64,000 nt of DNA from Candidatus Latescibacterota bacterium. GTDB lineage: Bacteria > Latescibacterota > UBA2968 > UBA8231. The notes beneath the pieces were generated by a model. It made no database searches, was not told where the DNA came from, and saw only the letters and a program-made list of their open reading frames with translations. Where the stretch lies: the NCBI GenBank assembly GCA_965204725.1, contig OZ242005.1, forward strand, positions 4,960,001-5,024,000, in the 5' to 3' direction. The translations under genes were made by a program, and so were the position numbers. Positions 20,493-56,732 of the stretch are shown here, piece by piece. Position 1 is the stretch's first letter, and every line of letters starts with the position of its first letter.

Positions 20493-22317
20493 AGCCTCCC
20501 CGAAGACTCGGGGGCCAGCCGCCCGCTTGATCCGCGACTGGCTCGGCTTTGAGTTCGTCTCCCGCATCTATCTCTACAGCGCGCTCATCGGCCTGATTTC
20601 TGGCTTGGGGGCCGTGTTGTTTACCTACGGCCTCGCGCTGGCCAAGTTCCTGCTCGTCGAGAAGTTGGCTGGCTACCGCCAGAGCCATCCCCACAACAAG
20701 GTGCCATTTGACTTCTCCTTTTTCGACGCGCCCACGTACGGCGAGTTTTTGTGGCTGCTGCTGTTGCTGCCGGCACTGGGGGGCCTGCTCAGCGGCTACC
20801 TGACGCACCGCTTCGCGCCCGAAGCGCAAGGCGCGGGCACCGACGCCATGATCGACGCCTTCCACAACCAGCGCGGGCACATTCGCCCTATCGTCGCTCC
20901 GGTCAAGGCCCTAGCGACCATCATCACGCTCGCCTCCGGGGGGGCTGCCGGTCAACAAGGTCCGTTGGTGCATATTGGCGCGGGCTTAGGCTCTTGGGTC
21001 GGCGACAAACTCAAGCTCTCGGTTGCCCAGCGGCGAATTTTGTTGCTGGCGGGCACGGCCGGCGGGCTAGGCGCGATTTTCCGCGCCCCCCTCGGTGCTG
21101 CGATCGCCAGCGTGGAAGTACTCTACCGCGAAGACTTTGAAAGCGACGCGCTCATCCCCTGCGTCATCAGCTCCTTCGTGGCCTACGCTCTCTACATAGC
21201 CGTTTTTGGCTTCTCGCATATTTTCGCCCTGCCCGACCTGCTGTTCACCGATGTGCGCGAGTTGGTCTTTTATCTAGTACTGGGGTTTTTCTGCGCCGTG
21301 GTCGGCATTTTTTACGTCAAGGCCCTGCGCCTGGCGCGCACCCTCTTCGACCGCCTGCCCGTACCCCGCTACTGGACCGTCTGCGGCGGCGGCTTGCTGG
21401 TGGGACTGGTGGCCTGGGTGGATCCGCAAGTGCTGGGCGATGGGTTTGGCGTCATCCAGCAAGGGCTCGACGGCGAACTCGGCATCCGCGCCTTCCTAGT
21501 GCTCGCCCTGCTCAAGATCCTTGCCTCTAGCTGCACGGTCTCCAGCGGCGGCTCGGGCGGGGTCTTTGGTCCTTCGCTCTTCATCGGCGGGATGCTCGGC
21601 GGCACGGTGGGCCTGCTGAGCCAGCAGTACTTTCCCCACATCGTCCACCAACCGGCAGCTTATATCGTGGTGGGCATGGCCTCGTTCTTCGGGGCGGTGG
21701 CCAATACGCCGCTAGCGGCCCTGATTCTCATCATCGAAATGAGTGGCTCCTACCACCTGCTGCCGCCGCTGATGGTCGTCAGTGCCCTCGCGCTGATTTT
21801 CGCGCGCAACGTTTCCATCTACCAAAACCAAGTCCAAAACAAGTTCCACTCTCCGGCTCATATCAAAGACTTAACCGTCAATGTGCTGCACAATCTCCAA
21901 GTCCGCGGCGTATTTCCGCGCCTCAAAAACACCTCCGAGGCCATCGTCAGCAATCGGCTTTCCTACTTTTCCCTGAGCACCTTGAGCAAGAAACTCGGCC
22001 ACCTGCACTTTGTCGTCACCGACGACCGCGGCGGCTTGCGCGGCATGATCAGCCTTGAAGACCTCGACCTGCCCGACGACGAGATGCTGCGCAACCTAGT
22101 CCTTATTGAGGACATGGTCGTCGATGACGTCCGGCCCATAGACGCGGAGGACAACCTGCACGAGGCCCTGCAAAAATTGCTCGATTCTGGCTACGACAAG
22201 CTGCCCGTGGTGCAAACCACAGACGAGGGGGAAGGCGCGTTTTGGGGGTATCTGATGTACTCAGATTTGATGCGAGTGTACCACGAGGAGGTCATTCGGT
22301 TGGAGGATCAAGATTGA
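20485..22317 (+). CDS. CLC family chloride channel/transporter with CBS domains
   Basis: GAGTD, GQQGP, GAIFRAPLG, GGSGGVFGP, SIY, C-terminal CBS pair; ATG 20485. Confidence 0.92.
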   Translation: MPEASPKTRGPAARLIRDWLGFEFVSRIYLYSALIGLISGLGAVLFTYGLALAKFLLVEKLAGYRQSHPHNKVPFDFSFFDAPTYGEFLWLLLLLPALGGLLSGYLTHRFAPEAQGAGTDAMIDAFHNQRGHIRPIVAPVKALATIITLASGGAAGQQGPLVHIGAGLGSWVGDKLKLSVAQRRILLLAGTAGGLGAIFRAPLGAAIASVEVLYREDFESDALIPCVISSFVAYALYIAVFGFSHIFALPDLLFTDVRELVFYLVLGFFCAVVGIFYVKALRLARTLFDRLPVPRYWTVCGGGLLVGLVAWVDPQVLGDGFGVIQQGLDGELGIRAFLVLALLKILASSCTVSSGGSGGVFGPSLFIGGMLGGTVGLLSQQYFPHIVHQPAAYIVVGMASFFGAVANTPLAALILIIEMSGSYHLLPPLMVVSALALIFARNVSIYQNQVQNKFHSPAHIKDLTVNVLHNLQVRGVFPRLKNTSEAIVSNRLSYFSLSTLSKKLGHLHFVVTDDRGGLRGMISLEDLDLPDDEMLRNLVLIEDMVVDDVRPIDAEDNLHEALQKLLDSGYDKLPVVQTTDEGEGAFWGYLMYSDLMRVYHEEVIRLEDQD

Positions 22318-52677: not shown

Positions 52678-52704
52678 CTGGATTCCCGCGTTCGCGGGAA
52701 TGAC
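52678..52704. repeat. GTCATTCCCG-type extragenic palindrome
   Basis: CTGGATTCCCGCG-TT-CGCGGGAATGAC; partial GGAATGAC again at 52730. Confidence 0.75.
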
Positions 52705-53766: not shown

Positions 53767-54969
53767 CTAGTCAATGGCATCCCTCAGCAGTATGCTTCTC
53801 GCGGCCTCAGTCTCAGACGCGAACATAAGCGCTGCGGCACTATCCGCCCGCCCGGCGGCCGCTGCTTGCTGGCGAAGCTGGTATAGCGCGATGGGCAGCC
53901 GCAGGTCTGCTGCGCTATACGAAAAAGTCCTTCCGGCTTGCTTTTTGCGGTAGCTCTGTATCGCTTCGAGATAGCGATAGCCGAACTCCGCGGTCGGCTC
54001 GATTATGGTGCCCTCGCCGTAATCGTTCCAAGTGACAATCTGGATCAGCGACGCGCTTTCCCCAGCGCGTTCTAGCGTCTCGGCAAAAACCGCGCCCTCT
54101 TGGTCGTCGAGATAACCATAGCTTTCGCGCACACCAGCCTCTGAGTAGATGTCGTGGAACTTGGGAAACGCCGTGCCAATGCCGCCCTTTTCGTAGAGCT
54201 GGCTCAGGTAAGCGCGCCAAGCGGCCGGAGGCACGACGCGGCCGTCGTGTACTGGCGGCCAGCCGAATACCCCGTCGGCTCCTTCTTGGAGCGAGTTCAG
54301 GGTGTAGAAGTACGGAGGTTGCGGCAAGCCCGAAAACAGCTCCTTCCACGACGCCCCCTTGAAGTACTGCGGACCGAATACGAGAAGCAGGGGGCGGCCC
54401 GCGATCTTGGCGTATTCGTCGGCGACGAACCAGTGGTCCTGCATCCAGCGCAAGACATCTTGGCCGTGGCTAAGGGCTTGGCTCTCGCGGAGAACCCCAT
54501 CGTTGACGAGGTGCTTTACCGTTTGGTCTTCGTAACATATTGCAAAGCTCAATCCGGCCTTCTTGATATATGCGATTAGGTGGTTTGTGTTGCGGTGGAT
54601 CGCGGCGTAATCGCGGTGATCTTCGATGCCGTACCAGTCGATGATCGCGCCGTCGATACCTGCGAACTTCATAAGCAGGACGTGACATTCCAAGACGTGG
54701 GGGTCGTTTGAATCATACGGCCCGATCAATGGGTAGTAATGAGAGGCTATTTCGCGGCGACCGTCGTCGGTGATGGTGTTGGGATCAAAGTGATTCATCG
54801 TCCAGTGCCAACCCCACTCGCCGCTGGCCGGTTTCGCCGCATACCAAGGCATGTAGTGAACCATTATTTGGGGGCTTACCGTAGATAGCGGCTGAATGCC
54901 CGGGCTGACGAGGCTTTCGACGCAGGACAGGGACACACAGCACAGGGCGATGGGCAGGAGGCGTTTCAT
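53767..54969 (-). CDS. GH99/GH71-like glycoside hydrolase, putative lipoprotein
   Basis: Lipobox-like SLSC, HYMPWY, YYPLIGPYDS, AGIDG..IDWY, TWNDYGEGTIIEP. Confidence 0.82.
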   Translation of the reverse strand: MKRLLPIALCCVSLSCVESLVSPGIQPLSTVSPQIMVHYMPWYAAKPASGEWGWHWTMNHFDPNTITDDGRREIASHYYPLIGPYDSNDPHVLECHVLLMKFAGIDGAIIDWYGIEDHRDYAAIHRNTNHLIAYIKKAGLSFAICYEDQTVKHLVNDGVLRESQALSHGQDVLRWMQDHWFVADEYAKIAGRPLLLVFGPQYFKGASWKELFSGLPQPPYFYTLNSLQEGADGVFGWPPVHDGRVVPPAAWRAYLSQLYEKGGIGTAFPKFHDIYSEAGVRESYGYLDDQEGAVFAETLERAGESASLIQIVTWNDYGEGTIIEPTAEFGYRYLEAIQSYRKKQAGRTFSYSAADLRLPIALYQLRQQAAAAGRADSAAALMFASETEAARSILLRDAID

Positions 54970-55045
54970 TATCAAGGGTTTGGGAGCGGTCTAAAAACCC
55001 ACCTTGGGGCGTGTTGAACAAGCCGTAGAGACGGTCGCCGTCATT

Positions 55046-55243
55046 ATGTATGTTGCGTATTCCTTTCGGATTGGCCACTCTGAAAGGCAAGCGTGAGGGG
55101 CGCGTCGTCCGTCATTGGGTGAGCCGGCACGTCCGTGTCGCCGGCACCGTGCGGGAGTAAGACAGCCCTCACGCTTGGTTGTCGCTCCGAACCGATATAA
55201 GGGCACAAGGCCCGTATTACCAAGTGTAGAGGACAGCACCATG
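55046..55243 (+). ncRNA. Orphan IS110-family left end, candidate bridge RNA
   Basis: TGTATG end, 5' hairpin 55062-55087, 12-bp stem 55088-55099/55166-55177 with large internal loop, second loop ending GTATTACCAAG, then AGAGGA RBS and ATG 55241. Confidence 0.65.
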
Positions 55244-55248
55244 ATAAC

Positions 55249-55538
55249 TATAATGGTGCTAGTAGTTGACCGTGGCCTAGGTAGTTCCTACGCTGAGGTG
55301 TCCCCGTAAAACATGGAGCGAGCGGATGGTCCTTGAGACGGTCTTTTCCATGCTCACCCGAATCAGCCGATTTAAGCAGCAGACCCATCGAGCCTGGGCG
55401 TATTTCACCGCTCATCTCAGCTTGGCCATGGCCGCCTTCAATCTGCTGGCGCAGTGGCAGGGAGTACAGCCGGATAAAAACGGATGCGTCGCGTTGTCTA
55501 TCGCGGAGTTCGGATTATAAAACACTAGCACCATTGGT
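55249..55538 (+). mobile_element. Internally deleted IS982-like element (MITE-sized remnant)
   Basis: IRs AATGGTGCTAGT / ACTAGCACCATT; transposase C-terminal fragment 55326-55520 (ETVFSML…AAFNLL…LSIAEFGL). Confidence 0.65.
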
Positions 55539-55544
55539 TATATC

Positions 55545-56732
55545 ATGCCTTGGTACAGACCCTCTCTACTCCTGCTGGCGATTGCCGGCTGTGGACAAGC
55601 ACCCGAGCCAACCCCCGAAGTACAGGGCGACCGCTCGATGCGCGCTGGCTACTACGGAGAAGCGGCCGGCCACTACCTGCACGCCGTTGACCAGCACACC
55701 AAATCGCCGGTGCTCTACCGCAAGCTAGCCGAGGCGCATGCGAAAAACGAGGACCTGTCGTCCGCTGTCCGCGCATACGAGCAGGCCATTGCCCTCGCGC
55801 CGAGCCACGCCAAGACGCGGACCGAATTGGCCATTCTGTTTACGCGCCTCAATCGCTACGAGGACGCCTTCGCCTTGCTCGAACAGACGGTGCGCGAGCA
55901 GCCCGAGCGCGCCCGGGCGAACATGGTGCTGGGGTTGCTGCACGCCCGCGAGGGACGCTACCCAGCCGCGATTGCCGCCTATCAGCGCGCCCTTGCCGCC
56001 GTGCCCAACTACGGGGAGGCGTGGTTCAACCTCGGCGAAGCCTATCTCAAGCAAAACGACTACGCGGCCGCCGAGCAAGCCTTTGGCCGCGCCGTGGCCG
56101 CCGATACGACCTCGGCCCGATTTCGCAATGGCTTGGGGCGCAGCTTGTACCTCCGGAGAGACTACGCCGCGGCCGCGGCCGAATGTAGCCGCGCCGTGCG
56201 GCTAGACTCGCTTTTTGCCCGAGCACACTTCAACCTCGGCAACGCCTTGCTGCGCTCCGGGCAGCAGGACGAGGGACGACGCCATCTAGCGCTCTACAAA
56301 CGGCTCGAAGAAGAGGAAGATCGGATCGCCATGCTAAAAAACACCCTAGCAACGCACCCCGACGCCGCCGGGGCTTACCACGACTTGGCCGTTGTGTACG
56401 GGCAGCGCGGCCAATACCAAGAAGCGCGCCTCCGCTATCTCCAAGCCCTCGACCGCGACCCTGCTTTCGCGCCCGCTCACCACAACCTCGGCAACATCCA
56501 CTTCCGCCGGGGGGCCATCGCGGCGGCCGAGCAGCGGTTTCGCCAAGCCTTGCAGGCCGATTCCACGTATGTCCTCTCGCACTTGGGATTGGGCAATGTC
56601 TATATGCTGCGCAAGCAATACGAGCGCGCCATGGCCTCCTTCCGCCGGGGCCTGCGCCACCAGCCCAACCACCCCAAGCTCCGCCGCAATCTCGCCGCGG
56701 CCGAGCAAATCGCCGCGCAGGTTGGCCGATGA
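55545..56732 (+). CDS. TPR repeat lipoprotein
   Basis: IAGC lipobox, many TPR units (AWFNLG, AHFNLG, AHHNLG). Confidence 0.9.
   Translation: MPWYRPSLLLLAIAGCGQAPEPTPEVQGDRSMRAGYYGEAAGHYLHAVDQHTKSPVLYRKLAEAHAKNEDLSSAVRAYEQAIALAPSHAKTRTELAILFTRLNRYEDAFALLEQTVREQPERARANMVLGLLHAREGRYPAAIAAYQRALAAVPNYGEAWFNLGEAYLKQNDYAAAEQAFGRAVAADTTSARFRNGLGRSLYLRRDYAAAAAECSRAVRLDSLFARAHFNLGNALLRSGQQDEGRRHLALYKRLEEEEDRIAMLKNTLATHPDAAGAYHDLAVVYGQRGQYQEARLRYLQALDRDPAFAPAHHNLGNIHFRRGAIAAAEQRFRQALQADSTYVLSHLGLGNVYMLRKQYERAMASFRRGLRHQPNHPKLRRNLAAAEQIAAQVGR

Follow-up and report, generated by a model that had tools for sequence, protein, structure and literature searches.

Among mobile elements of the IS110 family, ISPpu10 of Pseudomonas putida is reportedly one that targets REPs. 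The closest described system for the locus presented here is IS621 which, according to the accessible parts of two reports, carries its bridge RNA in the left end, upstream of the recombinase gene, as a 5' hairpin followed by two modules with internal loops (PMC11208160, PMC11208158). In the first internal loop, the 5' side represents the left target plus the core, while the 3' side is complementary to the core plus the right target (PMC11208160). The second internal loop relates to the donor in a similar manner, its 5' side matching the final part of the right end plus the core, and its 3' side being complementary to the core and the first bases of the left end (PMC11208160, PMC11208158). The two bases that come after the core-binding bases establish a handshake with positions 6-7 of the non-cognate DNA, and this pairing follows the exchange of the top strands, which are cut just after the core (PMC11208158). 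The -35 and -10 hexamers of IS621 are split between its right and left ends (PMC11208160), its donor core is CT and its target is a REP-type repeat.

A second point of comparison is ISPpu9 of P. putida. As far as the accessible text describes it, ISPpu9 inserts at a fixed place in REPs, is found in several copies per genome, and is accompanied by unlinked "orphan" copies of its small-RNA gene, ssr9, and by MITE-like derivatives (PMC12288879). The same text places ssr9 3' of the transposase gene, with end-like boxes on both sides, and reports that the ssr9 RNA forms circles and is not needed for ISPpu9 transposition (PMC12288879).

Here, we analysed a locus in a stretch of 64,000 nucleotides (the window), positions C1:4960001-5024000 of a Candidatus Latescibacterota genome referred to as G000. 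Each of the IS621 traits listed above recurs in the predicted element: the RNA in the left end, the 5' hairpin and two modules, the handshake dinucleotides after the core-binding bases, the CT donor core, the REP-type target and the apparently split hexamers. Unlike IS621, the Latescibacterota element has a target core (TT) that differs from the donor core (CT), it resides in a Candidatus Latescibacterota host, and its copy in the window has neither a recombinase gene nor a right end. We conclude that the element is, in all features tested, an IS621-type system, hence of a known kind in a little-studied phylum. Several copies per genome, the fixed place in REP-like repeats and the orphan RNA gene are shared with ISPpu9, as described in PMC12288879. 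On the other hand, the ssr9 orphans are portrayed there as two-ended mobile modules, whereas the window orphan would be a one-ended truncation of the guide-RNA gene itself. Relics of the latter type are absent from the accessible text of PMC12288879, and related titles and abstract openings do not suggest them.

The window copy itself is an ordinary truncated insertion sequence. The raw sequence of an uncultured Latescibacterota lineage suffices to read all guide parts of a putative bridge RNA (four guides, two handshakes, the core and a split promoter), and the roughly 100 empty target repeats of its genome allow this readout to be checked. The value of the locus lies in a corrected target rule for the element family, in guides that appear to act naturally in trans (in the genome G026), and in the testable question of whether one-ended bridge-RNA relics stay active.

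Full copies of the element and the left end in the window

A DNA search of the genome with 55040-55243 returned six places, namely the window, three longer copies (L002, L003 and L004) with 91-92% identity over ~200 nt to the window left end, and two ~41-nt matches (L005 and L006) lying within copies of another small repeat. A first-pass annotation of this DNA had proposed an IS110-type bridge RNA without its recombinase, and a BLASTN search for copies followed by a DEDD gene bore this out: all three longer copies in the same genome run into an ORF with DEDD_Tnp_IS110 and Transposase_20 domains (3.3e-22 and 7.3e-16 in L003). The 317-aa form of the L003 ORF, counted from its ATG, scores 206.9 bits on NF033542, "IS110 family RNA-guided transposase", for which the cut-off is 140. 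Across the whole element, L002 and L003 share 96.7% identity, but L002 is frameshifted into ORFs of 288 and 125 aa, while L004 carries two internal deletions. These three copies account for every DEDD_Tnp_IS110 (PF01548) match genome-wide, L003 being the intact one, and the recombinase is indeed missing from the window copy, as there is no such match in the window.

When the three longer copies are aligned, homology begins on the left between CGTCATT and TGTATG. The right edge was first placed at ..GCGGGAATCCAGT, but a scan of the genome revealed that CGTCATTCCCGCG.A.GCGGGAATCCAG is a REP-like repeat of its own. Therefore, the element proper ends at ..ACAGATA-CT and extends from TGTATG.. to ..ACAGATA-CT over ~1.19 kb.

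Judged by its 91-92% identity to three recombinase-bearing copies and by a covariance-model match given below, window 55047-55243 (+ strand) is the non-coding left end, or putative bridge-RNA gene, of an IS110-family insertion sequence. It stops ~35 nt 5' of the position that the recombinase start codon occupies in the full copies. The letters ATG are present at 55241-43, where a ribosome-binding site and start codon had been read, yet no gene starts there; the supposed binding site, GAGG, belongs to the donor-binding module, where it forms the 3' arm of the basal stem, and in full copies the recombinase ATG lies ~35 nt downstream, behind AGGAGG. At the left junction the window has an extra A (55046, + strand; CGTCATT-A-TGTATG), which is not found at the CGTCATT-TGTATG junction of L002, L003, L005, L006 and most relatives; L004 reads CGTCATT-TGATG.

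A -10-like hexamer, TATGTT, is found at 55049-55054 (+ strand), as read from the left-end and right-end sequences. TTGACC occurs in the right end of the full copies and would come to lie 17 nt from TATGTT only in the joined, excised circle. Following the IS621 promoter, we propose at the level of motifs that the two hexamers may form a promoter split across the circle junction; the window copy, with its right end absent, has no -35 partner. A promoter scan of 54900-55620 scored no + strand promoter. Its single promoter-like site, on the - strand, belongs to the GH99-like gene, and the single terminator-like hairpin in the same interval (55030-42) is the target repeat; both counts are within shuffle expectation.

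Fold and relatives of the RNA

The hairpins, the stems and the repeated 8-mer reported by the first-pass annotation are all present, each where it had been placed. By analogy with IS621, the RNA would start near 55061 and measure ~175 nt, with a 5' hairpin ahead of one module for binding the target and another for binding the donor. In the 5' stem-loop (55062-55087, + strand), CCTTTCGGA (55062-70) faces TCTGAAAGG (55079-87) in 9 pairs, one of them G-T. The putative target-binding module (55088-55177, + strand) consists of a 12-bp basal stem of CAAGCGTGAGGG (55088-99) and CCCTCACGCTTG (55166-77), an internal loop and an inner stem-loop (55118-55148) closed by GCCGGC (55123-28) on GCCGGC (55140-45). 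The third, putative donor-binding module (55185-55231, + strand) reads ACCGATATA, a GGGC/GCCC hairpin (55201-04 / 55210-13) and GTATTACCAAG; it has a basal stem of CTCC (55185-88) and AGAG (55228-31), where the A at 55228 breaks one pair, with the left donor guide, the hairpin, the right donor guide and a handshake dinucleotide following in that order.

The RNA module of the window copy is remarkably intact, with all stems kept, and its 12-bp stem is perfect where the three longer copies of this genome have mismatches. [quoted passage not shown] Taken on their own, these observations speak against a relic.

Folded as a single sequence, the region gave z-scores of -2.47 (+ strand) and -3.12 (- strand), which are only mildly unusual. 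We discarded single-sequence folding energy as proof of an RNA or of its strand, the z-scores being weak and not telling the strand. Rfam 15 returned no match, either in the whole window at gathering score or in 54900-55650 at E up to 10, a null that cannot decide either way. Because single-sequence folding is weak and Rfam has no match, the case for a bridge RNA rests on comparison.

We therefore rely on 13 aligned left ends from 5 genomes, for which RNAalifold returned the three-module fold; the set omits the copies at contig ends in G031, which are nearly identical, as well as the scars L013, L026 and L029. After removal of the RNAalifold pairs inside the target loop, the 35 retained pairs form in 93.1% of cells, against 42.5-56.9% with the partners slid, and both-side changes affect 11 pairs, against 0-4 with the partners slid, a comparison that favours the structure in so far as it was derived from the same alignment. 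In helix 1, the 5' stem-loop, 3 of 7 pairs have changed on both sides and 91.1% of cells pair; compensatory changes occur in 8 of 20 pairs of helices 2-4, in the target-binding module. On comparative grounds, the predicted three-module structure is real.

A covariance model (R1) was built from 10 copies with a recombinase start after the left end, the window copy being excluded from training. In this check, which the first-pass annotation had proposed, the model recognises the window copy: it scores 55047-55235 at 186.8 bits (E 1.8e-45). This match, together with the homologous copies directly upstream of IS110 recombinase genes, upholds the assignment as an IS110-type bridge RNA. A second match to R1, at window 20682-20854 (- strand; 16.1 bits, E 0.0085), lies inside a 660-aa ORF and was taken as chance.

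Among the 75 other genomes of the family, 6 carry homologous left ends, and these all belong to the same genus (6 of 30). The same recombinase gene comes after the left ends of the relatives wherever the sequence is complete, and the left ends that run into it are L002, L003, L004, G049, G033, G053b/d and G026a-c. In metagenome scans the window-type pattern was found in 0 stretches and no parent element with a window-type left end was seen, while the family-shared pattern returned one short contig, L078, in which a recombinase gene comes after a more distant IS110 left end.

Target repeat and guide segments

The DNA to the left of the element (54989-55045, + strand) is the left half of a REP-like repeat, in a context that we call type B, and represents the predicted insertion target; the same flank is found in many empty copies. 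In these, the flank ..ccaccttggg..gttgaacaagccgtagag..ccgtcatt runs on into cccgcg.a.gcgggaatccag, and loose ends of contigs at 54985/54989 coincide with the repeat boundary. The last 8 nt of the flank, CCGTCATT (55038-45), correspond to the left target plus the TT core. We found the empty site CGTCATTCCCGC 95 times in the genome, compared with once for a reversed control, and 43 of the 95 copies contain the full CCGTCATT; GCGGGAA.CCAG has 154 occurrences. One empty repeat lies inside the window, near 52704 (- strand). The empty site thus reads CGTCA-TT-CCCGC, while occupied sites read CGTCA-TT-TGTATG on the left and, in the full copies, ACAGATA-CT-CCCGC on the right. CGTCATT stands directly 5' of 6/6 copies in this genome.

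The first-pass annotation had noticed that one side of the large loop repeats the insertion flank, and this holds: the putative left target guide CCGTCATT (55109-55116, + strand), on the 5' side of the loop, is identical 8/8 to the flank at 55038-45 and has the top-strand sense of the left target plus core. An 8-nt identity between loop and flank arose in 0.22% of 20,000 left-end shuffles.

On the 3' side of the loop, that reading has to be corrected. The right target guide had been given as GGAGTAA (55154-60), which is 3 nt off register; the segment that would bind the right target and the core is GCGGGAG (55151-57), the reverse complement of CTCCCGC in the right junction ..ACAGATA-CT-CCCGC of all full copies. 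Together with the handshake UA (55158-59), which can pair with the TA that closes the right end of the element, the right target guide GCGGG and the core-binding AG form a stretch (55151-55159, + strand) that is invariant in 13/13 left ends. GGAGTAA is made up of two bases binding the right target, two binding the core, the handshake UA and one further A. Since it spans all three kinds of segment, TACTCC is the right junction after insertion and not the target; it consists of the last two bases of the element, the core and the start of the repeat. The empty site forecast from the shifted register, CCGTCATTAC or ...TTACTCC, gives way to CGTCATTCCCGC, with its 95 copies. Patterns of the earlier type, CGTCAT..CTCC, gave 63 scattered, unrelated matches and were dropped after the empty REP sites had been seen.

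In the donor-binding module, the window has the left donor guide ACCGATAT (55191-98), the right donor guide TACCAAG (55218-24) and the handshake UG (55225-26), which can pair with the CA that closes the left target. In G049 and G033, the left donor guide ACAGATAC agrees with the right end at 8/8 positions, with one mismatch in the G000 copies. In the full copies the right donor guide is TACAAG, the reverse complement of CTTGTA, that is, of the CT core followed by the initial 4 nt of the left end. In 20,000 shuffles of the left end, the four guide words never co-occurred for G049 and did so at a frequency of 5e-5 for L003.

Based on these assignments, we propose that the donor-binding module would recognise the joined ends of the excised circle, ..ACAGATA-CT-TGTATG.., while the target would be the REP-like hairpin repeat CGTCA-TT-CCCGCGAAAGCGGGAA. 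The recombinase would cut after the core and swap the top strands, giving CGTCA-TT-TGTATG on the left and ACAGATA-CT-CCCGC on the right, as in the full copies. The target core TT at the left junction and the donor core CT at the right one fit top-strand cleavage after the core, and as the two cores differ, the right target guide has a G-T wobble where it meets the first base of the core.

In the genome G026, guides of two types (CGTCATT and CGTGGAT) coexist with flanks of two types (cgtcatt and ggtggat). One of its three full copies (L018) is matched in cis; two of the three (L012 and L022) are swapped, and the truncated L026 is a near-match. These swapped pairs of guide and flank imply that the predicted bridge RNAs of this IS110 family act naturally in trans. 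G026 contains 14 occurrences of the sequence GGTGGATTCCCGC, and G000 contains 4.

Truncation and fate of the window copy

Homology to the IS110 copies ends at 55243, and an internally deleted IS982-like remnant begins at 55244 (55244-55541, + strand; blastn against the genome and alignment with two full copies). From a full length of ~890 bp, the remnant retains ~55 nt on the left and the final ~245 nt, and its ends are inverted. A 261-aa ORF in the full copy L036 matches PF13612 at 33.4 bits (cut-off 27) and the IS982 model NF033520 at 63.5 bits, below its cut-off of 130. A 64-aa ORF in the remnant (55326-55520, + strand) aligns with the end of this ORF, has no family match of its own, and represents the C-terminal fragment of the IS982-like transposase.

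The remnant abuts the ATG of a gene for a TPR lipoprotein (55545-56732, + strand; 395 aa; Pfam TPR families), which has orthologues of 82-91% identity in 26 genomes of the genus. At the 21 TPR loci whose upstream 320 nt were inspected, ..ggtctatactttttNN stands directly before the ATG and a divergent Tat-signal aminotransferase-like gene lies upstream. The window gene has neither ggtctatactttttNN nor the Tat-signal neighbour, its ancestral upstream region being replaced by the IS remnant. In G000 the ancestral neighbour is 111 kb away, at C1:4904178, and inverted. Therefore, the locus is a rearrangement breakpoint, i.e. a break in synteny. Loss through one simple inversion was considered and rejected, as undoing the C1:4904178 inversion does not rebuild the IS110 copy. 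A blastn search of 25 loci did not place a GH99-like gene within 1.5 kb of the TPR orthologues, and blastn of the full element against the genome detected neither an orphan right end nor a stray piece of recombinase at any other place. The window copy also lacks the right half of the target repeat.

The window copy is hence no complete autonomous IS110 element, with no recombinase gene, no right end and no PF01548 match in the window, and because the right end is absent it cannot be excised or moved. We propose the following history. The element would have inserted into a REP-like repeat beside the GH99-like gene; an IS982-like element may then have landed just before the recombinase start codon; and a rearrangement or deletion at the IS982-like element could finally have taken away the right end and the right half of the repeat along with the recombinase gene.

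What is left of the element in the window is very probably a truncated IS110 leftover, a non-autonomous relic at an early stage of decay. The other 12 sequences share 93 columns without variation, and at these the window copy has 4 private changes, three of which fall in the donor-binding module. The four are 55165 C>G, then 55198 C>T in the left donor guide, the additional C at 55220 in the right donor guide, and 55228 G>A in the basal stem. By the same count, nine copies score 0-2, eight of them with a recombinase start after the left end and the ninth being L004, with its internally deleted gene. G053c and G053a, both seen cut short, score 4 and 8, and G026c scores 5.

A retained orphan is the main alternative, and we regard it as rather improbable. 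According to it, the RNA would be transcribed from a promoter in the flank and loaded by the intact recombinase of L003, and would guide insertion, excision or REP-to-REP rearrangement in trans. The fully preserved fold and target guides are in keeping with this, and so are the presence of an intact recombinase in the genome, the trans action implied by the swapped pairs of G026 in the same IS110 family, and the finding, in the accessible text of PMC11208160, that a bridge RNA supplied in trans works for IS621. However, the window RNA, if made, would bear the same target guides as the three longer copies and would specify nothing new. Furthermore, the three private changes in the donor-binding module hit both donor guides and a basal pair, and mismatches in the donor guide lower the activity of IS621, as far as the same text describes it (PMC11208160). 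The -35 half of the circle-junction promoter is missing too, and no + strand promoter was scored.

Conservation of the locus has to be weighed in the same context. The arrangement of REP, left end and IS982 remnant is also found in contigs of 4 runs from 4 studies, which would suit a retained orphan. The runs listed for this sequence include no RNA run. X1, X2 and X4 show 0 differences across the junctions, and X1 may be the source sample. X5, which is the most diverged of the runs, has a single difference in the 325 nt of 55007-55331 (55228 A>G, restoring the stem), whereas its flanking pieces have 7/355, 8/352 and 24/878, i.e. 39 in 1585 nt (2.5%). About 8 differences would be expected in 55007-55331, with a Poisson probability of ~0.003 for this one contig comparison. 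The low divergence of X5 hints at constraint or at recent exchange, and as a point in favour of retention it comes from a single contig comparison. If the alternative were true, a one-ended relic would keep steering recombination at ~100 REP sites after losing its own mobility, and REP-to-REP inversions like the 111-kb one at the window locus would be a possible effect.

It is far less probable that the copy is a MITE-like miniature mobilised in trans by the recombinase. The genome does contain very short derivatives (L005 and L006, inside another small repeat); however, an IS110 element can move only if both of its ends are there to make up the donor junction, and the window copy, which lacks the right one, is a single-copy variant that differs by 8-9% from all other copies. 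We give even less credit to a cis-regulatory, riboswitch-like 5' UTR of the TPR lipoprotein gene, since, although the element is structured, on the same strand and upstream of the gene at 55545, it has no Rfam match at E up to 10, is absent from 21/21 of the inspected 320-nt regions upstream of TPR orthologues, is separated from the gene by a 298-bp IS remnant, and in every other copy precedes an IS110 recombinase gene or is an IS scar.

Besides the truncated IS110 leftover in the window, which we favour as a relic, other shortened copies occur among the relatives. In the scars L013 and L029, the left end breaks off precisely at the CGTCATT/GGTCATT that encodes the guide, and the right half of the repeat follows directly. 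According to the accessible part of a preprint, IS621 recombines at sites matching half of the bridge RNA (bioRxiv 10.64898/2026.08.31.748434), and by analogy such half-match recombination would explain both scars. The window copy differs from these in that it breaks at the IS982-like element.

Scars of the IS110 left end

Two genomes compared with the one carrying the window harbor diverged left ends reduced to scars, at L013 (G038:C1:1612790) and L029 (G053:C13:1172881). In both, the left-end sequence breaks off precisely at the guide-coding ..GTCATT, after which the repeat sequence CCCGCG..GCGGGAATCCAG takes over, and the guide-coding DNA at the break mimics the left target. These scars look like deletions running from the guide-coding DNA to the right junction. 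The right junction shows no homology that could account for slippage. The pattern fits the action of the recombinase on an internal, half-matching site.

We found two mini scars in the window's own genome, L005 (G000:C1:3366070) and L006 (G000:C1:1854870), in which the left end is reduced to its initial ~34 nt and joined to the repeat at ..GGCCA-CT-CCCGC. Both lie within copies of a small repeat of ~150-190 bp with inverted ends (tatagc.gtcctaaatgactcgaaagcatggaatgttgatcgg..), whose 14-mer GGAATGTTGATCGG occurs 19 times in this genome. The mini scar seems to have been duplicated together with its host small repeat.

Genome-wide, the REP-like hairpin repeat (CGTCATTCCCGCG.A.GCGGGAATCCAG) numbers about 95-157 copies, one of them in the window at 52704 on the minus strand. 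It occurs in at least three flank contexts, and a longer variant carries an inserted ..AAGAACGTCACCCCGTGCCCCGACACGGG.. hairpin.

Guides, flanks and element ends

Comparison of four loci in genome G026 (L012, L018, L022 and L026) revealed two variants of the left target guide, CGTCATT and CGTGGAT/CGTGGTT. Flanks also come in two types, cgtcatt and ggtggat; at L012 and L022, the copy's own guide disagrees with its own flank. The sequence GGTGGATTCCCGC is found 14 times in G026 versus 4 times in the genome carrying the window. A more distant IS110 left end, followed by a recombinase gene, was found on a metagenome contig of 1306 nt (L078), with left target guide and flank unchanged (ggtcatt|tgtatc) but a target loop that differs on its 3' side (..CUCGCAGUAAGA..).

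In the longer copies L003 and L002, TTGACC lies close to the right end, and the left end carries TATGTT at nt 3-8. In the joined circle, and nowhere else, the two would form a sigma-70-type promoter, with 17-nt spacing, and its predicted start coincides with the foot of the 5' hairpin.

A weak match to the bridge-RNA model at window 20682-20854 on the minus strand (16.1 bits, E 0.0085) falls inside a 660-aa channel-like ORF, and we judged this candidate second bridge RNA to be a chance match.

The IS982-like remnant upstream of the TPR gene

An internally deleted remnant of an IS982-like element occupies window 55244-55541. The full element (~890 bp; L036, G000:C1:4385-5280) encodes a 261-aa DDE transposase, and several full or partial copies exist in this genome, one inside another at C1:3824407-3825397. 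Synteny breaks at window 55541-55547: the conserved upstream region of the TPR gene and its divergent Tat-signal aminotransferase-like neighbor are found inverted and 111 kb away (G000:C1:4904100-4904180), where they adjoin a further REP copy and the end of a small repeat. With its start now 3 nt past the remnant, the TPR gene must have a new promoter.
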